A stretch of 64,000 nucleotides of DNA from Pseudogymnoascus verrucosus (lineage: Eukaryota). Below are positions 22,901 through 64,000 of the stretch, in pieces. The notes beneath the pieces are model-generated. The model had not been told where the DNA came from and did not search any database. It was given only the letters and a program-made list of their open reading frames with translations. The stretch lies in NCBI GenBank assembly GCA_001662655.1, contig KV460224.1. The stretch is one strand, 5' to 3'. The position numbers and the translations under genes were made by a program. Within the stretch, counting starts at the first letter, position 1, and each line of letters opens with the position of its first letter.

Positions 22901-24183
22901 TACGATCTCATCCACCTTGTTCTAGAGGACTTGGACAGGGTTTCTGGGCAGCAGCCAGAGTTTAATGCAGATGGCATGTACACAGTTGTCGCCATGAAGA
23001 GGCAGGAGGCATATGCCATTGTCAACGAGTCGACGGACGAGGTGTTCCATTACGACCTGTACGACTGGTACCTTACCCAAGGCTGGACCGATCGCCTGCT
23101 CGCCATCGATTCTCCATTTGTAATCTCCTATCTGCAAAAGCAGTCCCTGACCAGCATCGACCGCGCCGACCTTCTGTGGCGCTTCTACGCCAGCGGGAAG
23201 CGATACCACGACGCCGCAAGTGTGCAAGTGGGCCTCGCCAAGAGCGAGTTCCCGCTGGACCTCAAGACGCGGATCGAGTATCTCAGCCGCGCCAAGGCGA
23301 ATGGCTCCACCACGACTATTGGTATTGCTCGGTCGGCGCAGCAGGTACTTCTGCGTGAGGTTACTGAGCTCTTGGAGATTGCGAATATCCAGGATGAAAT
23401 CCTCCAGCGCTTGAGGAATCACCCTAGACTGGACCAATCGAGGCGTGAAGAGATCGTCCGTGAGCTTGATGGCCCAGTTCATTCGCTTTCAGAGGTATGT
23501 CAAGTGAGAATTCCGACAGAATTTGTGTTACTAATTACCCATAGCTGTTCAACGAATATGCGGATAAGGCCAACTTCTATGACATCTGCCTCGAGATTTT
23601 CCAAGCTGCTGGCCACTCCAACCCATCGGATGTCGACGTGACCTGGACCAACTTCCTAGACTCCACCCACGGCCAGATCCTCGAGAAGGCGGCAGCCGCA
23701 GGCCCGAACGAGCCCCTACCAGCAAAACCCTACGAAGCAATCATCAACGCCGTGCGCGACCTCGCCTACCGCCTGAACCGCAGCGAATCTACCTTCCCCC
23801 CCGAACTCCTGATCCCCAAGCTAGAACGCTACGCCTACGAGCAACAGCGCGGCGTCGGCCCCCCAACCTGGGTAATGGACCTCTTCATCGAGATCGGCAC
23901 CGCCTTCGAGCGCATCATCCCCATCCTCGAGGGCATGATCCACAACGACGAAGCGCCCTTCCACGGCCGCAACAGACGCTTCATCGCCAACGACGCGCTG
24001 TACGTCATCGAGAAGTGGTACCAGGACTGCATCCGCCACAACAGGGAGGTGTTTGGCGGCGTCGACTACGCTGCGGGGATCAGCACCTTCCTCAACATGC
24101 TGACGCAGAATGGGCTCGAGGGCGATAAGGTCTACGAGGCGCAGGAGCTGCGGGTGAAGATCGAGCGGGTGCTGAGGAGGTAG
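19916..24183 (+). CDS. NUP170: Non-repetitive nucleoporin Nup170/Nup157 (Nup155 family), ~1384 aa, 3 exons (19916-20213, 20277-23494, 23545-24183)
   Basis: Motifs MGLFSELNHAWITIDNALYIWDY, VYELTYQQEEKWF, LRRKCKSFCSADDV and RIEYLSRAKAN, with canonical introns. Confidence 0.93.
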
Positions 24184-43097: not shown

Positions 43098-44594
43098 TGT
43101 TGGCTGTTTCCTGTGTAACGTCGGCTATGGCTTGGAAGGACAGCTGGTTCGTCGATAAGCGCGGTCGGAAGTAATTCCCAAAAGCAAGTTCGCTGAGTAC
43201 AAAATAAACAGCGGCGCAATTCAAACTCTTAATTTGATAGTATATGTTAGAGTAACTATGATACAGCTGGTAGACTGTTGGAGAAATATGAGGGGGAGCT
43301 TGTTAGCCTAGGTTCTCCACAAAACCCCACGGATGGACGGATCCATAACGCTGACATCCCCCAACGGACGCTAAACACAGAATTCCGTATTCGACAAGTA
43401 AGAAGTAAATTCAGAAAATTCAGCTTGTGCTCAGTGTCAATTAATATCTGTATATACCACGAGTAACATTGGCGCACATTTATCTATTGCATATCGAGTT
43501 TTACACTTGTCATTGTTGTAAGATAGCATCATATTTTTAGATACAGATCACGTGCAAAGCCATGAGGTAAACAGCATTATAGCGGTGCTAAGACGGAGAG
43601 TATTTAGACCGTACCCTTCTTATTGAACTGCGTTTGGCCTTCATAATCATAACTGAGAGTTCTACGGATCTAATTTCTAACTTATGTGACCCCTACTACC
43701 CCTATTCGCCAAGACCCCCCCTTAGACCTTTATATAAGCCATTTTCGTAACCTTGCCGAGGAGCAGATAATTTGAAAATAAAAGCATCTTTCCTCTTAAA
43801 ATTCATACTATACCTCTATCGCCCAAAGTCCGAGATAGACAGTGAGGAATGACGCTATTTACAGTAATTATAAGTAAAATAATTGCTTTTACTTACGCAA
43901 GCATATAATTATCACATATAATTGCTCCAGAGTATGGTAAAAATAAGAAAATCTACGAATTTAATAGAATAATAAATCCTCGGATATCACAGTGTCAATT
44001 AACACCCTTGGATGGCACCAGTATCATTGGAGGCAATCATATTTAATTGCATGAAATAATTCAACTACATTAATAAATTCTTACTCTCCAGCCGTGTGTC
44101 TGAGAAGCTGCTTCATCAAAACGACGTGGGTCGGTTGTTTAAAGCCACGTGCATATCTACCGGCTGGGCCTGGCCGGATCTGCGACAACAACGTTAATGT
44201 TGACGTCCCCTCACACTCTCATGGCACGAGTCAATAATACAGTTCCTTCCGGAATTACGGTTAATCATTCATAATTTAGAAATAAATATTGGCACGCCAT
44301 GCAACTTTAACTCCATCTCTCCGCCATTTAGTTCTCCCGTCCTGCCAGGGCCTGCATTTCGATTCATGGGTTAATATATTATAGATTGCCATGGGCCCTG
44401 CCTCGGAATCCGGACCATGTCTCCTTCTACGTCCCCCGCAATATCTCTTTCTTTTCTTCGGAACCACGCTGCCGCGAGACCTGTCTCAATGTAAGTGCTA
44501 AAATGACGGCATCACTTAGCTGCTATAAAGGTAAGGGATGCGCCTCACCCTGGCGCCATCCGCATCTCCTTCTTCACCACTAGGTTTTCCTATC

Positions 44595-46613
44595 ATGCGT
44601 TCCTTATCTGCGGTGGCCCTGCTGGCCGCTGCATCGACTACCTCCGCGGCAGTTTTTGAGGCAGAATCTGGGACTCTTGCTGGCGGCGCAGTCATCGCAT
44701 CTGACCTTCCCGGCTTTTCGGGTACTGGATACGTGACAGACTTTATCGATGATACTGCCAAGCTCACCATCAACGTGGGGGGACTCGATGCTGGAGACTA
44801 CGAGGTCAAAGTTCTCTATAATGCTCAGTATGGAGATAAGTTCACAACCCTCACTGTCAATGGGGGCTCTTCAACCGAAGTAGCTCTCCCAAATGTCACG
44901 ACGACGACGTGGCAGACAGCAACAGCAGGAGTGTTCACCTTCACGGCTGGCACGAATACTGTAGCCTTTGCCCGCGATTGGGGTTACTACCTCATCGATG
45001 CCATCACTGTCAACCCCCCGCCCGTAAAGCCTGTCGTTGTCGTCGACGTTACAAAGGGGGCCGTAGCTCAAGCAGAAGATGGAATCCTCAACGGCGTGAC
45101 TGTTGGCAGCTCTGTCGCTGGCTTCTCTGGCACTGGATACGTAGAAGGTTTTGACGCGGATACCGACAAACTCACCTTTTCGCTCCATAGTGACAAACAG
45201 GCTCTGTACGATGTGATCCTAGGCTATGCTGGCATATACGGAGGCAAGCAGACAACCATGTCGGTGAACGGTGCCGGAGGAGGCGAAGTCGTCCTCCTCG
45301 ATACGTCTGCGGCTGCTTCGCCATGGGCCAATGCCACTGCCGGCCAGGTCCTTCTCAACGCTGGGAACAACACCATCTCCTTCTCCAATGACTGGGGATG
45401 GTACCTTCTTGACGCACTCTACGTCTCCCAATCGCCACCACCAGCACCACACCAGGTCACCAAGGTGCTCGTTGCCCCCAACCCCCTCCCAGAGACACAA
45501 AATCTCTACAACACGCTTCTTGCTAAATACGGCTCCGGAACTATCTTCTCCGGCCAAGCCGACACATCCGGCGTTACCTGGCTCGAGCAGAATGTTGGAG
45601 CCACCCCCGCAATCATTGGCCTGGACATGATCGAATACAGTCCCACCCGTGTCGTAAGTTCCGCTCCCAGCAACTCACTCGCAACCCCCGCTAACAGATA
45701 CAGCAATATGGATCTGTCAGCACAGCTGTCGAAGATGCCATTGCATTTGACAAGCGCGGTGGCATCGTCGCCTTCCAATGGCATTGGAACGCCCCTAGGT
45801 ACGGCCCCTTTATCTTCCCTACCATACATAACCTCTAACACTTATAGTGGCCTGATCAACAGTGACACTGTCCCATGGTGGAAGGGCTTCTACAGCTACG
45901 GCACAACCTTCAACCTAACCGCCGCCCTCGCCAACCCCAAAGGCAGCGACTACGCCCTCATCCTCCGCGACCTCGACGCCATCGCGCTCCAACTCCTCCG
46001 CCTCCAAGCCGCCCAAGTCCCCGTCCTCTGGCGCCCCCTCCACGAAGCCGACGGCACCTGGTTCTGGTGGGGTAATTTCGGCCCAGAGAGCAGCAAGGCA
46101 TTGTACAAGCTCATGTACACGCGCTTCACGCAGCACCACAAGCTCCGCAACTTGATTTGGCTGTGGAACTCCGTTACCCCGTCTTGGTACCCTGGTAATG
46201 ACATCGTCGATATCCTCAGCTACGACTCCTACCCCGCAGCCGGCGACCACGGTCCCGTTGGCGTGCAATACCAAGCCCTCCTCGCCCTCGGCGGGAACAA
46301 GAAGATGGTCACCCTCCCAGAAGTAGGATCCATCCCCGACCCAGACATCCTCAAGGCCTACCACGCCGATTGGTCCTACTTCGTGACCTGGAACGACGAG
46401 TACATCAATGCGGACACCTATAACAACCTTGCGTTTAAGAAGAAGGTGTATGCGGACCCAACGGTGTTGAAGCTTAAGGATCTAGGGAACTGGAAGGGCG
46501 TCCAGGTGAAGTATGGACAGTGTGGTGGGAATGGGTACACGGGGCCGACGTTGTGTGTTGTTGGGACGAAGTGTATGAGCATTTCGCCGCCGTGGTACTA
46601 TCAGTGCTTGTAG
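44595..46613 (+). CDS. Secreted GH26 endo-beta-1,4-mannanase with two CBM35-like modules and a C-terminal CBM1, ~639 aa, 3 exons (44595-45653, 45704-45798, 45848-46613)
   Basis: Signal peptide; two EAE.G.L.G...GFSGTGYV...WG(Y/W)YL.D modules; WHWNAP; WRPLHEADGTWFWWG (acid/base Glu); LPEVG (nucleophile); QCGGNGYTGPT.C..G..C....YYQCL (CBM1). Confidence 0.93.
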   Translation: MRSLSAVALLAAASTTSAAVFEAESGTLAGGAVIASDLPGFSGTGYVTDFIDDTAKLTINVGGLDAGDYEVKVLYNAQYGDKFTTLTVNGGSSTEVALPNVTTTTWQTATAGVFTFTAGTNTVAFARDWGYYLIDAITVNPPPVKPVVVVDVTKGAVAQAEDGILNGVTVGSSVAGFSGTGYVEGFDADTDKLTFSLHSDKQALYDVILGYAGIYGGKQTTMSVNGAGGGEVVLLDTSAAASPWANATAGQVLLNAGNNTISFSNDWGWYLLDALYVSQSPPPAPHQVTKVLVAPNPLPETQNLYNTLLAKYGSGTIFSGQADTSGVTWLEQNVGATPAIIGLDMIEYSPTRVVSSAPSNSLATPANRYSNMDLSAQLSKMPLHLTSAVASSPSNGIGTPLGTAPLSSLPYITSNTYSGLINSDTVPWWKGFYSYGTTFNLTAALANPKGSDYALILRDLDAIALQLLRLQAAQVPVLWRPLHEADGTWFWWGNFGPESSKALYKLMYTRFTQHHKLRNLIWLWNSVTPSWYPGNDIVDILSYDSYPAAGDHGPVGVQYQALLALGGNKKMVTLPEVGSIPDPDILKAYHADWSYFVTWNDEYINADTYNNLAFKKKVYADPTVLKLKDLGNWKGVQVKYGQCGGNGYTGPTLCVVGTKCMSISPPWYYQCL

Positions 46614-46858
46614 AGGGTGGTGATGCAGGGAGGGAGAGGGTAGTGATGGATTTGGTATATAGGGGGTATGGGAGATTGTACATAGCATATGTACATACAT
46701 AAGCGGACGGAATTCAAGCTTGCATTGCAAGAACTTGTGCCGTCCAAAAGTTTAAACTATGTGTGATCGAACTCTTTGTCAGGAATCTGCTAGCATCTAG
46801 ACCGCGTTTCCCAAATCTCGAAGGACAACCGCCTGTGCCTTTGATCCATCTTCCTACC

Positions 46859-49800
46859 TTATAGCCCTAACTGCGAGTCCGTAACGAAGTGACCGCCAGC
46901 CGAACACCTGTAGCCGCCATTCTGTTTAATCCATCTGAAGCCGGCAGGACAAATTCCTATAGTCCTCAATTTCTGCTGTGCCTTCGCCTCCTTCCTTCGC
47001 TCTTCTTCCACCGCCTTGCGCTGTCTCTCTAACTCGGCAAAAAGCTCATCTTGAGCACGACGTTCCTTCTCATGCTGAAGACGAGCCTCCTCACGAAGCC
47101 GCTTGGCTTCTTGTAAGATAGACTGGTCTTTATTGTGCTTAATGGCTTGCTGAAAGGCTTGTTCAGACGCGTGCTCTCTCTGCTGGAGAATTTTGGTAGT
47201 ATTTGCTGCATCAGCGCTTGCTTTGATGAGTTTCTCGTATTGCTCTTCCTTCTTCTCGGCTGCTTGTTTGTCACGCTGGAGTTGTTCCCAGACAACGTCG
47301 CTAACGCCAGAGTCACGCTTGGTTTCGTTTGCCGGGGCTGCTAGTGGCACATCCTTTGCTAATTGTTGAGGAGTCTCAGCCTCCGAAGTGTTCATAGCGG
47401 AGCTACTAGAAGCAGATGTCCGAGGAGGTGGGGGTGCCTGGATAGCTTGGATATGAGCCATCATATCACTGTGGAGAGAGTTAGGTCGAATGTTCGTTGC
47501 GTCTTGCCTCTGGTTACGCTCAGAGATCATGGAGTCGAGGACGGTGCGAACATGATCCTCCGTGACGACGGCAATGGTTTCCTTCATAGCACCAGCTTTC
47601 AAAAGCAGGCCAAATATGCCCTTGGCGATTGTTTGCACGTCACGGGCATTGGCCCAATTTGCGATCCTGCTGAGGGTTTCGAATTGGTTTAGTGTTTCCT
47701 GCTTGAAGGCTGGAGCGGGAACCTCCAAGGCTGACAAGTCTAGGTCTTTCTTTTTCTTTCGCATGTCGAGTTGACGGCCTCTTAGCAGCTGAATTAGTAG
47801 GTCGAGGCAGTCAGTAGGCTCTAGTCCACGAAAGATTATGGCTTCTGGAAAGCGACTTGTGAGACCAGGATTTTGCGCCATCAAACGGTTTATATCATCG
47901 TCATAACCAGCTAGAATGACAATAAGCTTTTGAGCATATTTCAACTTCGTCAGGCAATCCACGATTTCATCCATTGCTTCCTTGGCGAATCCATCCCCTG
48001 CAAGGCGATAAGCTTCGTCGATGAAAAGGACTCTGCCTAATGCATTCTCAAGGACCTTTTGTACCTTGGGTCCAGTTTGGCCGACATAGGATCCTACCAG
48101 TTCGGTGGCGGAGCACTCGACAACATCTGCTTTAGCAAGAAATCCCATATCGTAAAAGACTTTGCCCATTTTGCGCGCAGTTGAAGTTTTTCCAGTACCT
48201 GTAATTTGTTAGACGAGTAAATATCTTGCTTGTAGTCCATCCGACTTACCAGGTGGGCCACGGAAAAGAAAGTTGAATGGAATCTCTTCCCTAGGATCCA
48301 TATCCATTGATTTTAGCTCTCGCGCCGCATTTTGGTAGCCTTCGAGCTGAGATATGATGGTCTCACAACCAATTACGCCTTTGAAGAGCAGATGGACATT
48401 TGTATCTGCACGTTCGCCTCGATCGAAGTCTTCGTCAAAGTCAATGGGCTCGAAGCGCGAGCGGTCATCACCACCGTTCCCCTCATTCAGCCTTTGCTGC
48501 TGTCTAGCTTTGGCATGATCAAGGAGAATATCAACTTCACCTGCGTTACCAAAGTTAGGTCGATTGCGAGCCCGTCGTAGCACATCCATCGCAACACGTT
48601 TGCCTAGGTCTGTCGTCTTGAATGCTAATTTCCCAAGCTTGAGGTCAAAGATCTTTGCCATTTCTCCGTCGTCGAAATCTTCAAACACAAATGCGGAGGC
48701 AAGGGGGAATCTCCTACTAAGACCAGGATTGACCTTCTGGAACATCTCTTCCATCTGCTCCTTGTAACCTGCGAGTAAAACACATCGATCATCACCTGGC
48801 ACACTCTGTACCTCGGCCACTATGGTGTCAATCACTGCAGTCTTGTAAGGATCGCTAGTAGAAGATTCACCCAAGGAACCACACAAGCCGTATGCTTCGT
48901 CTATTAGGAGAACTTTGCCTACCGTGGAGGCAAGGATCCCTTTAGTTGTAGACTCGGATGCGCCAAGGACGTTGCCAACGAAGTCGGAAGGGTTCTTTAC
49001 AACAACTGTATGATGTTAACGAAAGTCACCCTTGACTAGTGGTAGACATGATTTTACCTTCGCCATTTGATAGGAACCCAAGATCCGCCAGAACCTGTCC
49101 GTACATCTTCGCAACAGTCGTTTTACCCGTGCCAGGGGATCCAAGGAACACTTTGTTGAGGGAATACTCGATTAGAGGCGCCTCGTCCAGCTCGCGCTGA
49201 TAGTTGAACTGAACGGTGCCGAACAAGGCCTGTATTGTTTTCTTGACAGCTGACAGGCCAATGAGATTCTGAAGCTGTTTCCAAGCCTCGGAGTTGTTCA
49301 GCGCTTCAGTAGGCTCAGGGCCGAGGAGATCAGCACTCGTGAACAAGAAGTCGTCTGGTTTTTTCCCGGCACGCCTCTCTTTCGAGATTCGGACTGCTTG
49401 TCTGCTTGCAATTTTGGAGAGAGTATTTTCCATCTCGCGCGCATTGCCGAACCCCTCTCGTCCTCGTCCTCGACCAACGCGCCGGGCAACAATGCGGGAA
49501 AAGAGACCACCTGGCCCATCTTCGACGTCCATTCTGTTTTCATATCTCTTGTTCATTTTATGGGCCAGTATCTGCAGTAACTCGTCGTCTTCGTAGTCCT
49601 TGAATTGAAATTCGTGCGGAAAGCGACTTGGAAAGCCAGGGTTATGTGCAAAGAATTTTTCCATCTGTTTGTTGTATCCAGCGAGAATGAAGACGACCTT
49701 TCCCGTCAAGTTTTCCACTTCTGCGAGAATGAAGTCAAGAACAGCAGTTCCTCCAAAGTTACCACCAGATGCTAGCTGGTATGCTTCATCAATGAATAAA

Positions 49801-52800
49801 GCACCACCACCATTATTCTGAATATCCTCTAGCTTCTTTATGCAGCCCGGCACTCCTTCATTTGCGAGAGCTGCACCTGTTGTCTCGATAAATTGACTCC
49901 CAGGCAAAGCTCCGACAGAAGTGAGGAACTTGGCATAGAGCCGAGCGACAGTGGTTTTGCCTACGAGTGTCAACAATTGAGCTCGATTATTATTACAGAA
50001 GGGAATAACAATTGCTTACCAGTTCCAGGATTGCCTAACAAAGAGGCCCCGAAGCGTTTGCTCGACATATCGAGACCTTGACGCACAGCAGTATCCACCT
50101 CTAACTTGATAGCAAGGAACTTGTCCTTAACGTCTTCCAAGCCAATCATGCTCATCAAATCATCAAGAGCTTTATTGTCTGCACCTTCGTAGCGTTTGAA
50201 ATGCTCCCACTGCTTTTTTGCTGTTGACCAGTCTTCTTCGTTCTCCACAGCCACTTTCTTGCCCGACGACTTAGACGCAGGAGACGCTTGTGGTTTAGTG
50301 CAGGACTGTCGCTGCTTTTCAAGATTATTTGCTGTTACTTTAAGATTGGCTAGGTCCTGCTTCATTTGCTCAAGTACCCTGGCCGAGTCTTCAGCCTCAC
50401 GGTGATCTTTTAGAATGCGTTTCTGGTGATCAATCTCAGCTTGACTTTCCGCAAGCTGTCGTGCATAAGCAGCCATATTGCTGTCACGTTCGGCATCGAG
50501 TTGTGCATTTCGATTTCGAATTCGTTCTCTCTGTCGATCTTCCTCTGCACAAATCGCGCAAGCCGCCTGAGACTTTGAGCAAGGGCGCTGGGATCTATGC
50601 TTCTGTGAACAGACAAACTGAACCAATGCCTGGCATTCCATCTTGGAGTGATCATACAGTTGATGGCATTTAGAAGGGCAGTAATGAGTGCCACAGCTTA
50701 ATTGTGTTCCGCTTTTTCATATTAGCTAAATAAATCTTGGTGTCGAGCAAGACGAACTTACCATGGCTCCGAACATCCGCCATCAGGACATTCAATGTCA
50801 AAATCTCGAGCTGTCTTCAAAAGGACTTTCTTGTGCGGATGCTGCTGGCACTGGACTGGAAGACCGTCATATAGATGGCCGTTCTCCTTCATGAAGTGCA
50901 GGAACGGCGACCATGCTTGATCTGCATTGCGACTCTTGAGGAAGGTTTGTGCATTGCCAATCATGATGAGTCCGTCACGGGCTCGAGAAAGCAGGACATT
51001 AAGTCGCTCAGGCGAAAACATGAACCCAATGTCGCCTTTTTTGTTGCTACGCGTGAGAGATACAATGACAATTTCACTCTCTTCACCCTGGTAGTTATCT
51101 GATGTAAAAAAAATTAGAAAAGGCCTTGGAACATAACAGCCATTAACATACCGATCGTGGAGATTTTGATAGGGCGTTTGTTGATATTTGCGCTGACCTC
51201 CGAAAGTAAACCTGCTTGAACAAGATCGAAAGAATCGAGATCGTTGAGAACCGGATCGTTCTCTACCATAAGTTGATCACGAAGGAGGCGTAGCTGCCCG
51301 AGATATGGAGTAAGTATGACAAGCTTGTCAGTCCCGTATCCTTGTTGCCCAAGATAGCGGACGCATTTCAACACAAGGTCAACCTCGAATGAATTACTCT
51401 TGCTAGTCTTCGATTCAGGGTCTCGACGGTCTGCAATCTCTTGAGCATCAACCTCTGGATACACGTGGTTGAAGAAGACTACTCGGTCTCGGATCCCACG
51501 CACCGGTGCCCGATTCAGTGTCTTATCAGCATCTTGAAGGCTAGGGTATGTTAAGTGCCTGACTAAAGATGAGATTTCCGGACACATGCGGTGTTGCTTA
51601 GACAACGTGGTATGGGTATAATTTGCGAGCACAAGCCGTTCAAACATGGAACGATTGAGGTCATATCCATCGCCTTTTTCGACACTGATTGCGTAATTGC
51701 TATACTTTGGACGCAACTGTTTGTGATCTCCGATGAGAATGAGCTGCTTAGTATTAGGCGACAGTGCAGTCAGAACGTGGCTTTCCAGAATTTCGCCAGC
51801 TTCCTCAACCAGGACAACTCCTGGTGCGGCATTGCGAAGATCAGAAGCATACTTAGCGGCAGCTGTTGTGGTGCAACCAATGACTCTCATGCTATTAAGA
51901 GTCTGTGCTGTCCTCTCGCCTAGGGCCTGTGCTAAACGCTGCTGATATCTGTTATATCGTGAAAGTAGAGTGGCGACTTTGGACGCTTGTTCGTCTAGCA
52001 GAGCGGTACTCCAACGTTTCAAACGTTCCAGTCTAGAAGTCGCGTCCATGGCCCAAACTTCATTATGTTCTGCAATTTGCTTTTTGAAAATACCAGCATC
52101 CTCACCTCGCGACCATCTGTCATAGAGGTAATCTGGTTTGATTTCCTTTCCACCCTTGCCAACGCGCGTCATTCCATCTTCCTCGTCAGGTACAAGTAGT
52201 GCTGGGTAAAAATGATCATCATCATCGCTGAATTCAAGATAAGCAAGTATGTCCTTCCACGATACTCCAGTCTGGGAATAAGACTTGAGCTCAACTGACA
52301 GCTCAGTCCGGTAGTCCTCGACGAGTTTTTCTAAGTTGTTGACTATCTCCCACCCGGCGCGAGATTTATTATAGCCACCAGTTTTTTGTCTCTCGAACAA
52401 GTTCAAGGGCGCGGTTCGTGGTGTAGATTTCGATCCAAGTCGAACGACACTCTGCGGTGGAATCCCATTGTCAAGAAGGTCCTCAAGAAACTGATCTAGT
52501 GCATGATTGGTATAACTTAGAACAAGAATAGTCTCACTTGTGTGCTCGTACAACGCTTTTGCGATCAAAGCACCAATAAAAGACTTGCCCGTTCCTAGTG
52601 ATGTCAATAGTTGTGATTAAAAGAGCACACAGTTGATGAACTTACCTGGCGGTCCTTGTATCAGACTCACAGACTGTCCCAGTCCAGCGATGAGAGAATC
52701 CATCTGAGATTGATCGAGATCGATAGGTTGGTCTGTTTTAAGCAGGCGTTGGATGACCGAACTGCCCTTAACTCGCAGCTCGTTAACAAATGCGCTGTCA

Positions 52801-54113
52801 ACGGCTAAGGTAGTCTGAGATGCCTCGTCTGGAACTGTCCCTAGGAGAAATTGCGCGAGTGGAATATCTTTCATATCCTGCAGACATCGCAGCACAGGCT
52901 CATAGGCAAAGAACGGAGTGTCAACTTGGATATAGTCAACTGGCGTTGCTCCCTTTAAAGCCAATAAAAGGGTTTTGAAAGCATCGTCTCCGCATATCTT
53001 CAAGGTGATAGCCGGAGGATCTTCAAGCAATCCAGCTTCATCTCTATCCAGGATGGCGAAAGCAACGATCTGGTCTCCTTGTAATAAACAGCCGAACGAT
53101 TGATGTTTGAGGGATCGTGGGTTGTTTTTGAGGTAAGTCTTTCTTTCCAAAGCAGACATCTTTTCAAACTTTTCCATGCCAACCCCGCAGTGTAGCTTCA
53201 AAGCACATTGCTTCCATTTCTTCGGCTCACCACATTCACTTCCAGCAAGACTGAGGCTCTCAAGGATGACGGGAGATCGTCTCCCTTTCTTCTTTCCAGT
53301 CGCGATGCGAACATCGTCCCTCAGCTCAGCAAGCATGTCTTCCCGAAGGAGGCGAAACTGGTTATCCAGGTGAATTCCGACGCGATTTTCAGGCTCAGCT
53401 AGAGGTATTTCTTTGGCCGGTCTGTAGAATGGTTGCGTGTCCGACATGAATTCGTCTGCAGTGGGAAATATTGCTATCTCGCGGTAGTCAACGAAGTCGT
53501 TGTCATGTCGACCTCCTGGTCCAGTATTGTCCGGGTTGGAATGTGCGCTACTTTCTTTAGCTTTTAAGAAGTGCTGAATTTTGTAACCGAGAACGCGAGT
53601 TTCATGGGATGATGATTCTAGAAGAGATCTTGAATTCGTTACAGATTTCGCGGTTTCCATTACTTCGATGTTGTCATTAGAAGGCATCGAGAGAAGCTCC
53701 CAAAGGAGCCAAGCAAAACCATGTGTTGCATTCTCACTGAGAGAGCCATTTTCATGTGAAACAACTAAGGCGTTCCAAAGAGTGGGAGGATCAGCAATGA
53801 TGACAAGGATATCCTGAAGAAACTGGCCGCTAGAAATTTGCTTGATGGCAGGGTCAGAGATATATCCAAGAAATACTGCAATGGATTGGTTGATGTAGTT
53901 TACAGACGTGTCGAGCCTCAGAGCTCGACGAAGTGCGTCAATAGACAGTTGCTTTGCAAAAAGTCTCTCTACACAGGTTACACGGTCTTCTTGTGCGCAT
54001 AGAGCTTCCAAAAATAACTTTGCACGATCAGCATTAGTGATGGAGGACTTCCCAAATGCAATGGATCGAAGGAACTTGTTCAATTGGATCGCTCGATCTC
54101 CGTTGGATGCCAT
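46859..54113 (-). CDS. ZNFX1/Upf1-like SF1 helicase + NF-X1-like Zn finger + coiled coil + three CbbX/SpoVK-type AAA+ ATPase modules + C-terminal Cys/His motif, ~2312 aa, 7 exons (54113-52646, 52594-51152, 51098-50762, 50711-50020, 49960-49058, 49005-48250, 48198-46859)
   Basis: Helicase motifs QGPPGTGKS, VEEAGE, IGDHKQLRP, QHRM, DNYQGEE and RLNVLLSRAR. Zn-finger motif CGTQLSCGTHYCPSKCH. Three AAA+ modules: GNPGTGKT/FIDEAY/NPGFPSRF, GSPGTGKT/LIDEAY/NPGLSRRF and GPPGTGKT/FIDEAY/NPGLTSRF. All six introns are GT-AG and keep the frame. Confidence 0.92.
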
Positions 54114-54879
54114 TAGTATATGGCAAGGAGAAGACGCCGTTTGCCAATAGTGACTTTGAGGGAGCAGTGGAGTCTAAAAACAGTAGTTAGTTAGTGATAA
54201 ATCAGAACATGTTGTAGGTGAATCGTAGCTGAGAAAGTGCTTAACGTACCTCTAGCTAGCAGTAGGGACAAGTCTTCGTGATGCAGCCTCCAAAAATTTC
54301 AAACAAATCTCGATCGACTTGTATATTCCTGGTAGAGAATTGTTTTCCGATATGAGCCTTGTAGACAGGATCGACTAGTGTAAAGGGCAGGTAAATGGGA
54401 TTTCGACACCAAGAAGAGCTCTGTACATTCTACTTCCAGGCAGTCTGTCTAAGCTCCTCACCTGTCAATGACCAAGAATTGTAGCCTAAAAGGAAGTTCT
54501 GTGAACACCAACTATAGTTCTACTTCTCTTCAAAAACGAAAACAAAGAGGATAAAAAAGAAGGAATCCTGGGACCATCGAACAAGGCGCGATGGTTGCCT
54601 TCTTCACGTTACACAGCCGCACTTCTCCACCAATAGGGATCTTTAGCTATCAAAGACAATGCAAGAGACCAAAATCGACGTGCTCTGCAGCCGAGAAGCA
54701 AAGGGATAGACCTACCTCATGTGGTGCCAACAAACCCTACATAAACGCTCATTTCTTGTTTCCGGACCAAGCCGCTGTAGCAGCTGGTTGAAGCCTTTCT
54801 TCCCCGATGATCAAACTTAATCTTGCTTCAGCGCGAACAATATTTGATTCAAAAGTTGGTGAGAGAGAAAATTTACGAG
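54114..54879. promoter_or_regulatory. Probable shared bidirectional promoter region between the helicase-AAA gene and the DXO-like gene
   Basis: 766 bp separate two divergent start codons, with no credible coding sequence in between. Confidence 0.6.
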
Positions 54880-56435
54880 ATGTTCTCGTCAAGCAGTTAT
54901 GATCGATTTGGCGGGCGTTCTCGTGGTGGTTACACTGCAACACGTCGAGGCAGTGGACAAGGCCGGCGTTCAGTAGCTCCTGCGACTCCAAGAAGTCCAT
55001 CCCCGCCAATCGGTCTAGTCTTGACTACCATCCGTTACAGCGAGTTGGAGGCCGATCAAGCCTCATCTAGCGATGCCAAAATCACAGGCCTAGAAGATGT
55101 CGCATCGTACAACTGGCTCAAAGCAAACGAGCCAACGATCATGACTCCTGGTTAGTATTCTCACAACTTGAGTTCTTATAACATCAAAAAAGCCCTAACA
55201 TAAGAACAGGCAAGCCTCCAAAGTGGACGCCCACAGCTAGGCCGACTAAGCTCGCGGAAGACAATCCTAACGGCATTTACTATCGAGACCAAAACGCTGC
55301 ATACTTTCCATCGTATCCTATGGAGCCGGTGGTTCGTTCTATCTTCGAGGAGCGCCCTGATTTCAATGCCCAGGAAGTTGATGTCTTCGGTTGCGGAAGT
55401 ACGTTTGGAAACTTGCTCAGGTTCGCCCGCAATGTCGAAACTGAGAAGCCATTTCGATTTCTAGTTGAGGCGGTGGGGGAGACAGTCTTTTTTATCCGAA
55501 GAGAGAACTCGCCAAAGGAAGTGATTACAGACATTCGTGGTTATGGGCATAGTTTCCCTGAAGCGAACACTACCTGGGATGCCGACCTCCAGAGTTCCAA
55601 TTCTCATCAACGCATCATCCGCTACCAGCTTGGTCATCTCAACACAATCATTCGATTTGAAGCGGACGGCTATCTTACAGAGAAAGTTCCAGAGAAGAAG
55701 ACGTATGCCAGCGCGGAAAATCGGGAGGTAAATGAAGACTTTCTCGTGTCAGCCCTCGCAGCAAACACCATTAGTGCCCACACGCCCAAGAACTCAGACA
55801 GCCTAAAGGTTACTCGAGGTCAAGGATCTGTACCCCAGTCTGCAGTTTTCGATCTGAAGACGCGCTCAATCAAAAAGAAGCACAATGACACCACGATATC
55901 CGACCAAATTCCCCGGCTTTGGATCCGCCAGATTTCATTCTTCGTTCTCGCGTACCACGACCGTGGCCTCTTTCGATCAGAAGACGTCACGGTCCACAAC
56001 ATCGAACCAGATGTCGCCAGGTGGGAGAGCGATAACAAGGGAGACGTGCGTAAATTGATCGGCCTTATCAAAAAGATTGCGGACGTTGTTAAGGATACCC
56101 CGAGACGAAAGCTGGAAGTCCGGTATCGATATGGGCTTGGATTGGAACTGAGGGAGCAAGTCGAAGGAGTGGCCTCCGTCTTGCCTAATGATCTTGCTGC
56201 ACGGTGGGCTGATCAAGGTGATCGGGCAGAATCTATTGCTGTAGCTGTCGGTAATAGCTCCGTTGATGGAGCCATAGGTCTTGAGGATGATTCTATTGAG
56301 AAAGGGGTGCCTCTTGACGAAAAGATTGTTAATGCTTTGGACGATGATGATGACGAGTATGATTGGGACAAGAAGGAGGATTATACGGCATGTTCGATGG
56401 AGAGTTGTAATTATTGCGGTCATTGCTCGTATTGA
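54880..56435 (+). CDS. Putative DXO/Rai1-like PD-(D/E)XK nuclease-fold protein, 498 aa, 2 exons (54880-55150, 55210-56435)
   Basis: RG-rich N-terminus; VASYNW...PG.PP.W.P; YRDQNAA; ordered motifs GYGHSFPE, SHQRII.Y, RFEADG, FDLKT and RLWIRQ; C-terminal DYTAC..CNYCGHC.Y. The GTTAGT...CTAAC...CAG intron restores the frame. The CDS is solid, but the fold assignment is an inference. Confidence 0.78.
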
Positions 56436-57420
56436 GATTTTGAAGGGATAGCGGTCATATATATCAGAAGGGGTTGCTTGATGAACAGATGTTCAGCAAA
56501 TAGTTCCTTAATAGGAGAGTAAGTGGCAAACGTCATCATACATTTTCGATGGGTTGTGTCTCATCTTTATGAAACACCACACGACCATTAGCAGAACCCA
56601 AGGTCATTATAATTGAATGAGTCTACGAGTCTTAGTCTTATGAGTAAAATAGTAGAGTAGGATCCTGCTATTAAGTTAGGTTGGTGATCTTGGGACCCTG
56701 GAAGCCAAGAAATTGAAATTTCGTCGCGACACCACTCACTCTTCAAGAGCCACACTATTCTCAACGCAAATTCCCAGTAGAATACAATCCCGAATCGCGT
56801 CATAGAAAACGTGTTAGCCACAGCTTCAAAGCCAATTCCATTAATCATACTGATTGCCACCAGATCGCTTCACCGTTTCGGATTATTGACGTGACTGGAC
56901 CAACCAAATGTGCAATATTATTCTCTCCATTGATAGACACCAACGCATTCATATGATTCAAAGAAGCTCATTGACTCTATGTGCTGTATATGTTCGCTAT
57001 AGCGTTGAATACTAAAATTATTGGCTAAGACAAACGTCATTTTATGTAGAATATGACAATGTACACGTACTCTTGCCATATCTTACCTACATTTGCGTGC
57101 CTATCTTCACTAATTCTAGCAGCAAAGGGCTGTTTTATCTGGCTTAATGAGCTTAATTAATTCTGTTAATTAGAAGAAGTTTACGTAGGGGGGATCGGTA
57201 GTTGGGGTTAAGGAGGAAGAGGTTGGTATAGTTTGTTGGGATATAACTCAAAGTCAGTCAATTAATGATATTTAAAAGTATTCAAATACACTCATCTTCA
57301 CAGCAGCGTCACGTTGAACTAATGGCTCAAGTAGTGATATCTTTAGTAAAGATAATTAAAAAATAAACGAAACAGCAGGGAAGTGTGCCTATTGCCACAC
57401 ACACAATACATTCCACCGCG

Positions 57421-58114
57421 TTAAACTGGCGCATCCTTGAATTCCCCCCTCAAGACCCTTTCGCACATCTCTTCAAGCCTGTATGCGGCCCACTCAAAAT
57501 TTTGCAGTTCGAGATATACCTGACCACTTATCCTGCACCAGACCTCTCCTCTATAGAACTTAACTGGAATCATGGTTTCGTAGTCCTTAATAGATCTCTC
57601 TGTCATCCACTTTGAAATTTCCGTGGCATCCGTATCTCTGATGTACGAAATCTTCTTATTTTCCTGCACGTTCACTGCTTCCTGATCCTGTGCGGGCTCG
57701 GCGCGAGTATCGTAAGAAGCAGCCCCATTCGTAACTACTAACGGTAAACGGGCGTTCACGAAGCAGCATCGATGGAGTGTCGGGGTCTCGTTTTCCATTA
57801 TTTCGGTACCCATAATCTCTGCTATTCTCTTGCCTCCAGCCTGGGCGATATGCTCGCAGTACTCCCTTACTGCTGCCTCACCGCCGCACGTTAGCTCGCG
57901 AAATTTCAGAGCTTCCTCAACGCAGACATATGGTGTGGGGTCGACGGTGGAAACTTTCTTGAAAAGCTCGCCAAATGCCTTATCTCCTCCTAGAACGGAT
58001 CCTCCTTCTAGTAGTGGTTGATATCCCCACGAAGTCGGTAGGGATGTGCGTATCAAATGATGGTTACGGGCTGGTACGTGTAGCACAGCACAACCACGCG
58101 GTACAAAAAGCCAC
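57421..58114 (-). pseudogene. C-terminal part of a class-V aminotransferase-fold PLP lyase (hercynylcysteine sulfoxide lyase Egt2-like), apparently 5'-truncated
   Basis: After a CTGAC...TAG acceptor the frame reads WLFVPRGCAVLHVPARNHHLIRTSLPTSWGY and ends W.RISGQVYLE..FEWA. No DGAH or SNxHK-encoding upstream exon was found in 58115-58600. Confidence 0.6.
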
Positions 58115-59589
58115 CTAATATAGAGTCAGTAACGGAGGCCAGTCGTTGCCTTGCACATCTCGCGGCGACTGTCTCTCGGTCGTGCAAGTATTTGTACCTA
58201 GCGTCAAGCTATTCGTACTGTTGCTGCTAGTGTGGCAAGACGTCTTGATACTTCAGGCGACTTATCCAATTGTTTGGCCTAGGATTCTTCACGCTGAGTG
58301 AAACCCCTTGAGCCACTTTCGGATTTCATGTACGATGCAGCGATGCGGGCTAAGAATGGTGAGGTGAGCAAGGCCACGGACCTTCAGCAAACTCCATATC
58401 CTAGGGTCATCCACAGAGGATATTGCATTAAAGTCAAGAAGGCAGAGTGGAAAGGCCAGCCGTAACCGCGATGGGTTTGGGTTTGCGAGCAGCGTTGAGG
58501 CGTTTATCGGCCACAATCAAGCCACATTTAGCCACGGAACGAATCTACACTAGCCCCACTTGCCCGTATCATCCTGATTTCGTATGAGAGTACCGCAGAT
58601 GCTAACGAAGCAATGAAGGCTGCCACCTAAAAATAATTTCTATAGCCACGAGCAATCAAAGTGTGAAGGACTGAGACAACATGTAAGACAATGGCTCAGG
58701 TTTCAATAAATCAGGTAGAGAGGTGAAAGGCATACTCTATTGTTGAATTTTACGGTATAGATATAATTCATGCCGCGTTCGAGCTTGGTCCCGCGGAGCC
58801 CACGCAGGCTAGTAATTGTACGACTGCCGCTACTAATCAATTTACTCGTGTGGAGATACTACTTGCATACGGCCGACTGGCGAGAGGAAAGACTATCCAA
58901 GAAACAACAAAGGCCTCATAAGTTTGCACGTCATGATTGCACCTATCCCTGCTAGCCAGGGTCAGGCACACCGACTGGCATCAGCGGCATAAGAACAGAG
59001 CCATTCGCCGCCCATTATCCTTGGCGGTTGGCACAAATGTCTCCGTGCGCTGAAAGCTGTCATAGTTTGGACGAGGCAAGTTTTAACGAGGCAAGTAAAC
59101 AAGATTCACAACTAGCAACAAGGATCTAGTATTAGATCAACCACAGGATTAACAGTGAACTATTTATATTTAATAATTTATCTTTATAAGACGACACCAA
59201 GTCGCGCACTTGGTATCATCACACCAAAATTTATATGTAAAGGTACCTTGTCACGTTTTGTCAGAAGTACCATTACATATAAATGTTGGTGTGGTGATAC
59301 TAAGTGCGCGACTCGGTGTACAACCACGTTACTACAAACAAGATTATCTACCCTTGTCCTACGTGGCTACAACCTCCACTATCGTCGTCATCATCTGGAA
59401 TTTTAAACATATCAACCCTATAAGTAAACCGACTCATCAATTGAGGTGAATCTTTTCTCAATAAACTCATAGTTAATTGATTGGAATCCCTCTACAGTAT
59501 ATTTCGCTCTAACTCGTCCACCTCTACGCTCCTCAGTCCACTCTCCACTCGCATCCCTTTCCTCTGAAAGACGAAAGCGTTCCCCTACA

Positions 59590-60079
59590 ATGTCAGACGG
59601 GTAAAATCAAAAAAACTTCTTACCCTGTCAACCCCCCGTCCCATCTTGTAAATTCCAAGTATTTACTTCGGGATCATCCCCCTCACAGACAAGAAGACAA
59701 AGCGGACGCCCCACAGGGGTATAACAACAATGACGCTGCATACAAATCTGAAAGCGAGTCTGACAACATCAACGATGGCAATGCTGTCACGAAAGGCAAA
59801 GCCAATAACCAGGGCCAAAAATCAAAATCACTCTATCAAGCCCGAGCCCAACGTCAGGAGGCAGCTCGTAACGGCAACGCGGCACAGCCATCGCGCGACG
59901 AAGCTAGAGAAAAGATGGGGTATAGGGCAGCGGCGATCAGGGAGTCGAGGATCAAAGACCGGCCTGTGAATAAGAAAGCGTCGGATAGCGCGCTTAAGAT
60001 TAAGATCGAGCTTGATCTAGAGGTTGAAGTGGATTTGTATGCGAGGGTGAAGGGTGATGTTACTATTGGGTTGATGTAG
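59590..60079 (+). CDS. Small hydrophilic protein, 133 aa, 2 exons (59590-59600, 59689-60079), with C-terminal LKIKIELDLEVEVDLYARVKGDVTIGLM motif
   Basis: acaATG start and GG|GTAAAA...CAG|A intron. The frame stays open to TAG at 60077-60079. The C-terminal motif matches a pattern I recall from fungal hypothetical proteins. Missed by the ORF track. Confidence 0.72.
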
Positions 60080-61727
60080 GATGGTCCGGTAGTGCTCAAG
60101 ATGGGCTCTGGTTGTCTTTACAGTTATTGGTGGGGCGCGGAACGAATACATCGTTCGAACCACTCACGGACATGCCAACTCCTTTTACTCATCAATCTTG
60201 ATCTCGTTATGGCCTTTGTCCTCCGTCCGGCACGGATATTTACCCTCTCACCGTTTCCATTACAGCGCAACGGGGAGATTCATCACCACTGGCTCCTGTT
60301 GAACGCCAGCGGCCCGTCCTGTCGAGGTCTGGCTGGGAAACTCAGGGAATGTATATGTCATGCTCGATTCCTAGAATAGCATAAAATTGAATCGGGATAC
60401 TGCAATGGCGTCTGGGCAGCTCACGATATCCCTCCTATTTGTATGCTAAGTACTAGACACAAAATCCCCATATTTCGAACAAATAAAGGACAGTTTCCTT
60501 CATGGCGCGCGTTTAAGATGCTGTCCAAGAACTAGACTAGGTATTGCCCAACGAGTGTCCCGTAACTCATGAAAGACCAAGACGATTCGATCACGCCGTT
60601 AATATCCTTCGCTTGTTCCATGAAGCCGAAGAGCTCCCGAAACGAAAGGAGACCGGTCAGATCAAACGATTTCCTAAGGCCAAATGATCTGACACTGCCG
60701 AGCCTCGCGGTTGACTTCAGTGATGACCTGCTTTTACTAGTTGTCCTGGATGTCCTGGCATCGAAGGTCAATGCCCCAGTCAGTTTGGAACGCGCTTAGA
60801 TAATTTATACCTTTATATATAATTTGCTATGTAAAGATACCTACAAATTTGGCCCTACGCGAACGCCGTCTGGTTACCATGACGGTTAATGGTGGGAGTG
60901 TCTTTGATGATGAAAGTTCAAGGCGGGGGAGGAGAGTGATCAGTGAGTCGGACTCGGCTTACGTTGATTGCTAGAGCTCTCGTCTTCGTTGCCTTGAAAT
61001 TAAGTCCAGATCTGTGTGGCTCTTGGCGACCCCAGGCCCCCCGGACATAACATTCAACAAATAGACCCTTGTCAGTGGCCATCTGAATTTGTGGCCGGAG
61101 TACAAGAGTTTCTTTTGGTTTTTGAGCCAACCCTTATGTGGCACGCTCAAGCAAGAAGAAATTCAGGCAGTATGGTATCGAAATTGTTCCTCACTACGTT
61201 GATGAATTTCAAGAATAAATCCAGAGGAGATAAGACTCTACCCAATTGATCTCTAGTGAGGGGTCATTGAGACTATCAACTGCTGCCAGATAGCCACGAA
61301 ATAATGTCGCTGTGCCATGATAGTAACCGCGCTCATGCGTCACTTGAAAAGGCGTCGTAAAATAAGCTTTGTTTAGTTAGTGTGTGTTTATTTGAATAAT
61401 TATGTAGTTATCACCGAACGCTCCGAAGGCTGATGCCGTAAACGGTGCTGCTTGGTGGGGCTAAAATTGCCCATCACGAAGCAAATGGCGGGGCATTTGG
61501 GATGTGAAGGGAACGCCCTCGCCAAAGATCTTTGGACGTGACAACGCATATCAGGACTGCGTCTTCTTGCACATGCGGACTAGCAACACCGCACATGTTT
61601 CACCAGAGAACCAGCGCTCCGTTATATCGTTATAGCTTTATACGCTCCGCTCTCAACTCATCTTAGTATTGCACCATCTTGACCGTGCGAGCGCGGAATC
61701 GTCTCGTATCGCTCCCCGCGATACGGG

Positions 61728-64000
61728 ATGGCGCCACAGTTGAATGGAGCCCGGGCAAGGCGGCTCAAGATCGTTACAGAGCCAGTGCGCGAACGAGAGA
61801 CGTTTAAGTAAGTCTGTTTCAGTCCAAATCTGCGCCGCCATCGCCGCCCTCTCGCTAACGGCCCACGTCACATTGCAGATACTACTCAACCCTGACCACT
61901 GGAGGTACGTCGAACCATAGCGGTGAACCGACTTCGAGTTCCGAGCTGTCGAGTTGCGACGACGCTGTCCTTACGGCCCTCGCCCAGGCCGGAGCCTTCC
62001 AGACGGGGACTGATCGATCGCTCATTTCCCTGTTTGATTCCGATAACCAATATATTGTCGCCGAAGCAACACAATCTTCGCGGTTGTTGCCATCAGTGAG
62101 GAGCGGGGACTGCCGCCAGCCCCTATGGCTGTGCGGCACCTCTATTCCTCGCAGCCATGGCGTCTGCGAGCTTAGCCTCCTCGGCGAGAACACCACCCGG
62201 ACAGATGAGGCAAGGAGCGAGACGTCGACGGAACTACCACTCACCCTGGCGGACGACTTGGTCATAGATCCTCGATTTTGCTCCAAACCCTACTGTCAAC
62301 CCGGAACCCTGTGCCGGTTTTATGCCGCCGTACCCATCCGAACGCGACGGGGCATCAATATCGGCGTGTACTGTGTCATTAATGAAACTCCAGGCAAAGT
62401 CTGGACCGAGGAGTATACTCAAACATTACGCGACATATCCCATACTATAATGGATCATCTCGAGTCAAAACGATTGGGAGATTTACATAGAAGGAATGAA
62501 CGCATGAATCGAGGCTTAGGGTCCTTCATCGAAGGCAAATCGACGCTATCCGGCTGGCAACCTGGCCCTCATGCGGCAGCTTTTGTCGATAAACCCGCAT
62601 TTGAGGGTGACCTTAATCATAAACAACAGTCCCTGCAGCTCGAACAAAATGACCTGGCGAATAATGCTGCCAAGTCTGGAATATTACCCATTGCGGCATC
62701 AGTCGATCCAACCGTTCCTCCTAGGCAGAACGCGGAAGCACGGTCATTTGGGGGTTCTTTCCGACATATTGAACGTCCGTTAGAAAATAGGGATGGCATG
62801 TTGGACTGTGAAAGCCCAACTGGTGTCTTTTCGAAAGCTGCCAATATTATCAGGGAGTCAACAGAGGTTGAAGGATGCTTGTTTGTCGATGCCACGATGG
62901 AGGCTTATCGATCTCCATCACGGACTAGTACCAACGTCAACTCGATGGGACTATTTTCTGCGGCAAGCAGTAGCGATGACAGTTCAGATCATGCACCTGG
63001 CGAGCAATCTTGGCGGCATTGCAGGGTACTTGGGTATTCGACTTCCGAGAAGTCAAGCATCGACGGAGATTCATCAAAGCAACATGCCACAGCGTTGCCG
63101 GAAAAATTTCTAGCCAAGCTGCTGCAGAGATATCCTAAAGGCAAGGTTTTCAATTTTGGCGCAGATGGAGTGCTTCAATCCTCTGACTCATCCGAAGAAG
63201 ATGGGAACTTCTCGACGTCAGAGCTTACTGAAATACTTCCTTTACTATCTGACAGCCGGGACAATATGCCTAACGTATCCATGCGTGATAAATCTCTAAA
63301 GAAGCCATGGGCTCGACACCGAGAGGGGAGCGTTCTCATGAAAGCTTTCCCCGGTGTTCGAAGCGTCGCATTTACCCCGGTTTGGGACCCGAGGAAAGAT
63401 CGATGGTATGCCGGTTGTTTCATCTATACCAACATTCTAACCCGAAGCTTTACCGTCGAGGGTGAACTAAGCTATTTGAGAGCATTCGGAATGCTCACTA
63501 TGGCTGAGATCTTGCGTGTCAACGACTGGCAAGTTGATAAAGCAAAGTCTGATATTCTCGGGTCGCTCTCACACGAACTACGCTCCCCCCTTCACGGGAT
63601 TATATTGAGCGCCGAATTACTAGGCGACACAAGACTCAGCGTCTTCCAAGGTAACGCCGCTCACACCATAGAAGTATGCTCTCGCACACTTCTCGACACT
63701 ATAGATCATCTCCTCGACTATTCCAAGATTAACAGCTTCGCGAGGAGGGGTTCCAAATCGAAAGTTAGTCGCGGACCTCAACCTGTTGCAGTTGTGGACG
63801 ACTCGGGACAATTTTGCGAGAAGAGCCTAACGTGCAACACTCAGCTTGACCGTCTTATTGAGGAAGTGACTGAAAGCGTTTTTGCTGGCTATACGTTTCA
63901 GTACTTGTCCATTACGCAGCCTTCTGTAAGGCAAGCCAAATCGATAGATCGCGACGGCATGGCCAGTCACCAGTCAAATCCCATGCAAACTATAGTCCAA
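61728..64000 (+). CDS. GAF-containing sensor histidine kinase (probably hybrid HK), 5' part only; exons 61728-61807 and 61879 to beyond 64000
   Basis: VTEPVRERETFK|Y across a GTAAGT...GCTAAC...CAG intron; LTALAQ.GA....DRSLISLFD..QYIVAEAT; RFYAAVPIRT..GINIGVYCV (GAF); H-box LGSLSHELRSPLHGI in the same frame. No stop before the window end, so it is absent from the ORF track. Confidence 0.9.

Follow-up and report, generated by a model that had tools for sequence, protein, structure and literature searches.

Introduction

ZNFX1 is an important and poorly understood immune helicase of animals, enzymes of the DXO family police the 5′ ends of RNA, and filamentous fungi fight RNA viruses and transposons mainly through RNA interference (RNAi). 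Here we describe a head-to-head pair of genes in the fungus Pseudogymnoascus verrucosus, of which the larger, on the minus strand, encodes a helicase fused to AAA+ modules (the large protein) and the smaller, on the plus strand (gene 2), encodes a protein with the predicted fold of DXO and Rai1. The pair lies in a 64,000-nucleotide stretch of contig KV460224.1 (assembly GCA_001662655.1), which we refer to as the window, and was first noted in a preliminary description of that stretch made from its letters alone. With modest confidence we regard the locus as a two-gene functional module of filamentous ascomycetes, most likely acting on RNA 5′ ends. Its components come from known families; the fusion, the dedicated partner and the behavior of the unit are new. 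The preliminary description knew of no functional account of such a pair, and our search of the open-access full-text literature (main texts) likewise yielded no description of the pair, nor one of either the helicase-AAA+ fusion or the DXO-like family.

Among described proteins, animal ZNFX1 and Caenorhabditis elegans ZNFX-1 share with the large protein the helicase core, a pre-helicase segment, and an armadillo (ARM)-like N-terminus with a stalk and barrel. The available text of one study gives this arrangement of ARM-like domain, stalk and barrel for ZNFX1, together with a C-terminal Miz and RZ ubiquitin-ligase part, and reports that ZNFX1 acts in antiviral immunity (10.1101/2025.10.14.682297). 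A Cys/His finger region follows the helicase in both proteins, as a single NFX1-pattern finger with weak Pfam support in the large protein. The Miz/RZ ligase part is absent from the latter, and its place is occupied by three AAA+ modules of the CbbX type followed by a different terminal Cys/His motif. Modules of this type, with AAA and AAA_lid_6 domains, are known from CbbX, the activase of red-type Rubisco, and from EccA1, which provide the best Protein Data Bank (PDB) matches to module 1; in the large protein, however, three of them stand in tandem in one chain and are fused to a helicase.

The gene 2 protein has the same fold as DXO, Rai1 and Dxo1, with conserved counterparts of motifs III and IV and putative ones of motif II and the motif V Gln, but it shows no match to them at the sequence level and adds an RGG-rich N-terminus and an acidic tail as well as a four-Cys motif at its end. 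Eukaryotes typically encode one DXO/Rai1 member, according to the available part of a paper in which that part makes no mention of the gene 2 family (PMC11571810). The Rat1-Rai1 system likewise combines a DXO-fold protein with a processive RNA enzyme, although there the partner is an Xrn-type exonuclease, whereas here it would be a helicase-AAA+ fusion. Additional DXO-family copies beyond the housekeeping one, of which gene 2 would be an example, have also arisen in nematodes, and excerpts of one report place the C. elegans DXO paralogue EOL-1 in the pathogen response (Orsay virus) (PMC13129544). Unlike the pair, the EOL-1 system has no helicase partner gene, and we found no evidence for common descent of the nematode DXO expansion and the gene 2 family.

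The bacterial defense system Mokosh, as outlined in the accessible portion of its description, consists of two genes, for a Upf1-like helicase and a nuclease (10.1101/2022.05.11.491447), and ZNFX1 is among the human matches to its helicase MkoA (10.1101/2022.12.12.520048). Mokosh (MkoA with the PLD nuclease MkoB) and the MOV10L1-PLD6 system have a Upf1-like RNA helicase and a nuclease in common with our pair. An MkoA-type helicase is present in the pair, but its partner has a DXO fold and is not a PLD nuclease, and the pair differs further in having no kinase domain and in carrying the extra AAA+ modules.

Gene models and transcripts

The preliminary description had proposed two intact spliced genes diverging from a 766-bp spacer, and coordinates, open reading frames (ORFs) and RNA junctions all agree with it. 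The coding sequence of the big gene (46859..54113, minus strand, stop included) has seven exons (54113-52646, 52594-51152, 51098-50762, 50711-50020, 49960-49058, 49005-48250 and 48198-46859) and specifies 2312 amino acids, with no internal stops; its six introns are each 50–59 nt long and have GT..AG borders. That of gene 2 (54880..56435, plus strand) has two exons (54880-55150 and 55210-56435), specifies 498 amino acids, and is interrupted by one 59-nt GT..AG intron with a CTAAC branch site. The two ATG codons are separated by the 766 bp from 54114 to 54879.

Transcript evidence comes from metatranscriptome contigs of relatives about 93% identical to the window, in three runs (X4, X7 and X18) from three studies. 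X4 and X7 each contain the whole big gene in a single contig (7490 and 7312 nt, respectively) with all six introns spliced out as modeled, and two of the six junctions are visible in contigs from X18; the gene 2 intron is spliced out as modeled in contigs from all three. The preliminary description had held that the two genes should be co-expressed if they form a module, and transcripts of both are indeed present in the same three runs. Such contigs cannot define true 5′ ends or expression levels; the greater contig depth of gene 2 relative to the helicase gene in X4 and X7 was thus not used, since contigs cannot rank expression.

Each gene has contigs of its own, which enter the spacer (54114..54879) from that gene's side, those of the big gene reaching about 54518 and those of gene 2 starting at about 54861 or further upstream. 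Because separate contigs enter from both sides, the spacer appears to be a compact divergent promoter region, probably comprising a bidirectional promoter and both 5′ untranslated regions. One 8-mer is common to 14 of 30 spacers (maximum of 8 in shuffled sequences); it was considered as a general shared promoter signal and rejected, as the extended motif is limited to about seven related loci. At these loci (L014, L015, L025, L026, L027, L029 and L036) the shared element, with core CAAGGCTGAGC, lies about 340–350 bp from the helicase start and is probably a lineage-specific promoter element.

Three of the six big-gene introns (52595-52645, 49961-50019 and 48199-48249) interrupt Walker A (P-loop) codons. 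Those in the helicase and in the third AAA+ module fall in the same Gly codon and in the same phase, and that in the first AAA+ module lies two codons later. At loci L028, L041 and L015 the helicase-AAA gene of about 2300 residues aligns as one unbroken segment and is apparently intron-less; the closest named relative of L028 and L041 is just 46–47% identical.

The large protein

As judged from its sequence, the large protein is a ZNFX1-family, Upf1-like superfamily 1 (SF1) helicase fused to three AAA+ modules. The helicase core is encoded by exons 2 and 3 (50762..52594, minus strand; residues 490-1082), retains every motif intact, and matches the Pfam families AAA_11 (E 7.5e-19) and AAA_12 (E 1.7e-18). 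Its best match in the PDB is human ZNFX1 (9q9z_A, E 1.5e-45), with UPF1 (E 2.8e-11), Aquarius and SETX far weaker, and it is also matched by the PADLOC profile for MkoA (E 1.1e-34). We take the helicase to belong to the 5′-3′ Upf1-like class, as its family membership would imply.

Exon 1 (52646..54113, minus strand; residues 1-489) encodes an ARM-like helical domain (1-190), a short linker, a long helix and a beta-barrel (241-396). In an AlphaFold 2 (AF2) model of these residues (predicted local distance difference test score, 80.6) the ARM-like domain has ten helices, and a Foldseek search with the model again returned ZNFX1 (9q9z) as the best match (E 2.2e-7), followed by Aquarius and SETX, with ARM proteins appearing only at E values of about 0.1. 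Residues 207-268, ahead of the helicase, match ZNFX1 residues 417-475 (E 2.3e-5). An N-terminal armadillo-type domain and a ZNFX1-type pre-helicase region, two features of the ZNFX1 family, are thus both present. The ZNFX1-type helicase named in the preliminary description is borne out by core, pre-helicase segment and N-terminal model, for each of which ZNFX1 is the closest solved relative. An invariant GGRHDND motif occupies residues 200-206 (53496-53516, minus strand), in the linker that joins the ARM-like domain to the pre-helicase helix and is modeled with low confidence.

Exon 4 (50020..50711, minus strand; residues 1083-1313) contributes to the Cys/His-rich finger region (residues ~1074-1137), after which follow a charged helical linker, the three AAA+ modules, a second charged stretch and the terminal Cys/His motif. 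Across 34 homologues the helicase motif residues are invariant, and the Cys and His residues of the finger region are nearly so. An NFX1-type finger pattern has a single match, at residues 1089-1109, and Pfam zf-NF-X1 reaches only E=4.

Exons 5–7 (46859..49960, minus strand; residues 1314-2312) encode the three AAA+ modules, which are of CbbX/EccA type, together with a charged tail. Pfam recognizes three AAA (PF00004) regions, two of them accompanied by AAA_lid_6, with none listed for module 3; module 1 has its best PDB matches in CbbX (E 5.5e-27) and EccA1 (E 2e-20). The match of module 2 (E 0.0088) is below the Pfam cut-off; its Walker A and B residues are nonetheless invariant in the 34 homologues, as are those of the other two modules, in keeping with the three modules originally proposed. 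Since all of these residues and the helicase motifs are invariant, the four predicted ATPase sites of the protein are probably active.

The CPAGFRW..GGYRCSAGGH motif that had been picked out at the C-terminus (residues 2281-2305; 46883..46957, minus strand) is a conserved one, present in 86 of 90 full-length homologues. It has no match in Pfam and no usable match in the Atlas, and neither an exact nor a loose regular expression found the Cys/His spacing of the ZNFX1 RZ finger in the large protein.

The homologue tables obtained from NCBI hold the best 120 matches for each gene. Among those listed, the architecture of about 2300 residues is found in Leotiomycetes, Dothideomycetes, Eurotiomycetes, Lecanoromycetes, Orbiliomycetes and Sordariomycetes and in one basidiomycete. 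Homologues of the helicase fusion are present in Aspergillus, Penicillium and Talaromyces, and Podospora has a homologue of gene 2.

The gene 2 protein

The product of gene 2 consists of the RGG-rich N-terminus, a DXO/Rai1-fold core (55212..56219, plus strand), the acidic tail and, at the protein end, the four-Cys motif (56379..56432, plus strand), whose columns are invariant or near-invariant and which a regular expression finds in 195 of 267 family members. An AF2 model built from 35 sequences has a confident core. In a Foldseek search of the PDB with this model every one of the top 30 matches is to DXO, Rai1 or Dxo1 (E 9e-11 to 1e-7), and the cap-binding domain of eIF3d follows. VIA-align gives Z scores of 19–20.3 to DXO1, Rai1 and DXO over 248–282 residues, with root mean square deviations of 3.5–4.3 Å, compared with 15.3 for Dxo1, 12–13.5 for eIF3d and 5.6 for lambda exonuclease. 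The two methods therefore agree in assigning the model to the DXO/Rai1 fold.

Six motifs are defined for the DXO/Rai1 family in the available text of PMC4513879, and those recognized in gene 2 match them in order and in secondary-structure context, an equivalence drawn from these two properties and not from residue-level superposition. The putative counterpart of motif II is G-H-S-F-P-E, with the putative active-site residue E208 present in 206 of the 267 family members by regular expression. Motif III (E-h-D) corresponds to E241-A-D243 at a strand end, where the Asp is found in 246/267 and ExD in 204/267, and motif IV (E-h-K) to D305-L-K307 within a strand ((D/E)hK in 237/267), so that both motifs are recognizable across the family. 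For motif V (K-X4-Phi-h-Q) we find W-x-x-Q at a helix end, with Q331, in 209/267, the Lys being off the expected distance. Two claims of the preliminary description are thereby strengthened: the PD-(D/E)XK-like motifs are real and conserved across the family, and the DXO/Rai1-like partner has the matching fold and keeps the acidic residues of the metal site and the lysine. On the model, gene 2 probably retains a two-metal active site.

No Pfam family matches the gene 2 protein at E≤10, and Pfam RAI1 (PF08652) matches none of 32 family members at the same threshold; a profile of the family matches no PDB chain by sequence, and no PADLOC model matches the protein. Because fold and motifs are kept while RAI1 and PDB sequence matches are absent, gene 2 represents, as modeled, a branch of its own within the DXO/Rai1 fold, divergent and outside the Pfam RAI1 family. 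The branch is a large one that had gone unrecognized, with 2,875 clusters at 50% identity and E≤0.001, 840 of them at E≤1e-30. The 1,028 homologues detected are mostly named 'hypothetical' or 'geranylgeranyl pyrophosphate synthetase', and the named members listed are mostly from Pezizomycotina. The latter label, which is widespread, is a misannotation that the present analysis corrects. The closest Atlas cluster other than its own is a nematode cluster bearing RAI1 (0.89), which we treat as a lead only.

Conservation of the pair

Linkage of the two genes was surveyed at 80 metagenome loci with gene 2 relatives (36–92% identity), which were searched with the large protein; a locus was counted as negative if at least 1500 bp were available upstream and no helicase-AAA gene was found there. 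At 54 of the 60 testable loci a helicase-AAA gene is present upstream of gene 2, on the other strand; six are negative and the remaining 20 of the 80 are too short. When the loci are grouped at 90% identity, pairing is seen in 37 of 55 clusters and absent from 5, the other 13 being untestable. In paired loci 590–1300 bp separate the helicase N-terminus from the point at which the match to gene 2 exon 2 begins. The head-to-head layout is kept down to 36–45% gene 2 identity, and among the paired loci are some whose nearest named relatives are Talaromyces and Exophiala (Eurotiomycetes), Alternaria and Zasmidium (Dothideomycetes), and Pseudogymnoascus (Leotiomycetes); for twenty lineages no named sequence compared reaches 70% identity. 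The preliminary description had proposed that orthologues unlinked in most genomes would speak against a module, and they are instead mostly linked.

Named assemblies give a similar picture: among the matches listed, the two genes have consecutive locus tags in five assemblies (Trizodia, Trichoglossum, Sarea and two of Trypethelium) and lie on equally long contigs in seven further species. Congruence of the two genes, a further check that had been suggested, was examined with 29 non-redundant loci and the window, and their pairwise identities are correlated (Mantel r 0.85, with none of 2,000 permutations as high; Spearman 0.53). This is co-inheritance and not co-adaptation, because linked genes are expected to correlate.

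Unpaired gene 2 relatives occupy other surroundings; at L055/L056 (~4165-13524), for instance, one lies between an upstream, opposite-strand SNF2-related fragment and a downstream SIR2-family gene, possibly a different partner set for this relative. Short motifs at the N- and C-termini of gene 2 fail to separate paired from unpaired relatives.

A signature of probable horizontal spread

Comparison of the window with related loci reveals a unit of shared nucleotide homology (46770..56529) that contains both genes and ends about 90 bp past each stop codon. With blastn, the window and L001 give one 9.8-kb match of 91.7% identity that includes introns and spacer, and identities to L003 and L005 are 90% and 85%, respectively. 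The flanks of the relatives' loci, compared with the whole 64-kb window, give no tblastx matches.

The divergence of the pair was set against that of a Nup170-type nucleoporin, encoded in the window by an ORF (20222-23641) that is 100% identical to P. verrucosus VE01_04801. The window Nup170 is 59% identical to that of Amylocarpus, 62% to that of Phlyctema and 57% to that of Sarea. Against Amylocarpus, however, identity is 93% for the helicase core, 88% for the N-terminal 489 residues, which are the least conserved, and 84% for gene 2; gene 2 is 80% identical to its Phlyctema relative. Divergence from Sarea is ordinary (helicase 61%, gene 2 44%), and in most lineages the pair has diverged in a broadly vertical manner, with 50–60% identity between classes, similar to Nup170.

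In a tree of 35 full-length large proteins, that of the window, four from Leotiomycetes and those of the Dothideomycetes Tothia and Venturia form one group with support of 100, in which the Venturiales sequences are nested within the Leotiomycete clade; the group is sister to a Sordariomycete. The tree path between the window and Tothia is 0.16 substitutions per site, compared with 0.65 between Aspergillus and Penicillium. We consider it likely that the two-gene unit has spread horizontally within and beyond the Leotiomycetes, although the pair may instead have evolved unusually slowly, or single assemblies may be contaminated. A full-length helicase-AAA homologue attributed to the basidiomycete Athelia psychrophila (P0233) also nests among those of ascomycetes, for which either transfer or contamination is possible.

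No transposase or recombinase was seen within the window, and when the unit ends were scanned for inverted or direct terminal repeats, only short, chance-like matches emerged. At L005 the pair lies between 143-nt direct repeats (578-720 and 12738-12880), 91% alike and 12,160 bp apart, which may be copies of a dispersed repeat or else mark where a larger element ends; these repeats are absent from the window.

Proposed function and alternatives

If the locus is a two-gene module acting on RNA 5′ ends, the helicase would bind and translocate on a target RNA or ribonucleoprotein (RNP), and the AAA+ modules would either act on the proteins bound there, remodeling or stripping them, or drive oligomerization; CbbX, which pulls on a protein tail, and EccA1, a chaperone, offer analogies. 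The DXO-like enzyme would then remove an aberrant or non-canonical 5′ end (a triphosphate, or an incomplete or NAD-type cap) and/or degrade the RNA in the 5′-3′ direction. Faulty own transcripts, transposon RNA and mycoviral RNA are candidate targets, and we infer that both proteins act on the same RNAs. As the pair is conserved, expressed and apparently transferable, it provides a genetically tractable hypothesis for a second fungal RNA-surveillance pathway.

Several observations weigh against this reading. The linkage survey covers adjacency as seen from the gene 2 side; 5 of the 42 testable clusters carry an unpaired gene 2 relative; and in Pyrenophora seminiperda, among the matches listed, the two genes are on contigs differing in length. 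In gene 2, whose motif equivalences and sequence-level negatives are given above, the motif II counterpart has one residue extra relative to G-Phi-X-Phi-E, motif VI has G-h-F in place of G-h-R, and no residue could be assigned to the Arg of motif I. A shared promoter, moreover, could keep the genes adjacent without any common pathway.

That the pair is adjacent solely through a shared bidirectional promoter, with the proteins in unrelated pathways and any split of the spacer damaging to both, seems to us distinctly unlikely. It would accord with a short spacer entered by the transcript contigs of both genes, and with the existence of some gene 2 relatives without a helicase, but the head-to-head layout extends across many lineages to the lowest gene 2 identities at which it was seen (36–45%), which is unusual for fungal microsynteny, and the spacer sequence is not conserved beyond close relatives (even the 8-mer occurs in just 14 of 30). 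The two genes also seem to have moved as one, the homology breaking off shortly beyond each of them, and both proteins are RNA enzymes by family. A different possibility is suggested by relatives of ZNFX-1, which include Hrr1, of the RNA-directed RNA polymerase complex (RDRC) of Schizosaccharomyces pombe, and SAD-3, of meiotic silencing in Neurospora. Given that its helicase belongs to the ZNFX1 family, the pair might be a similar endogenous cofactor module for small RNAs or heterochromatin, neither antiviral nor concerned with quality control, in which the DXO-like enzyme would prepare the 5′ ends of templates or of small-RNA precursors. We judge this unlikely: no genes for RNA-dependent RNA polymerase, Dicer or Argonaute are found in the window, and the transfer signature and variable genomic context fit a dispensable, self-contained module better than they do a core silencing factor.

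These last properties might instead be those of a selfish or mobile two-gene element, or of its cargo, with a potentially harmful nuclease controlled by the helicase-AAA protein. Such an element could account for the 84–93% identity of the pair between Pseudogymnoascus and Amylocarpus at a Nup170 identity of 59%, for the well-supported nesting of Venturiales in the Leotiomycete clade, for the sharp ends of the homology between unrelated flanks, and for the 91%-alike direct repeats around the pair at L005. We nevertheless regard it as quite improbable, as the unit in the window has neither a transposase or recombinase nor terminal inverted or flanking direct repeats at its ends, the 50–60% identities between classes indicate broadly vertical divergence in most lineages, and all catalytic motifs are strongly conserved.

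Returning to a module that acts on RNA 5′ ends, a defense-type role is more speculative and is suggested by analogy with ZNFX1, EOL-1 and Mokosh, together with the transfer signature; the likening of the pair to fungal allorecognition modules in the preliminary description finds no support in this analysis. In its strongest form, which we think fairly unlikely, such a role would make the pair an innate immune module of filamentous fungi, complete in itself and able to move horizontally, with the helicase recognizing foreign (mycoviral or transposon) RNPs and the DXO-like partner destroying RNAs without a proper host cap. Were this the case, fungi would have an antiviral system separate from RNAi, and the ancestral function of ZNFX1 helicases would be linked to 5′-end surveillance.

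Genomic neighborhood

The pair had been described as lying in an accessory-looking block, which holds for the pair itself, in that it behaves as a transferred unit, and not for its left flank, which consists of core genes (CLASP, RhoGAP, Nup170, a kinase, PGI, Ada2 and an M3 peptidase). The GC content falls from about 0.54 to 0.44–0.48 across 48–60 kb. ORFs of the right flank (56.5–61.9 kb) have no Pfam match, and the region from 56500 to 61850 is a gene-poor interval of about 5 kb with a GC content of 0.44–0.49, extending up to a gene for a GAF-HisKA histidine kinase. On the other side, a GH26 mannanase gene with two CBM35 domains and a fungal CBM1 (44535-46613) adjoins the 3′ end of the big gene.

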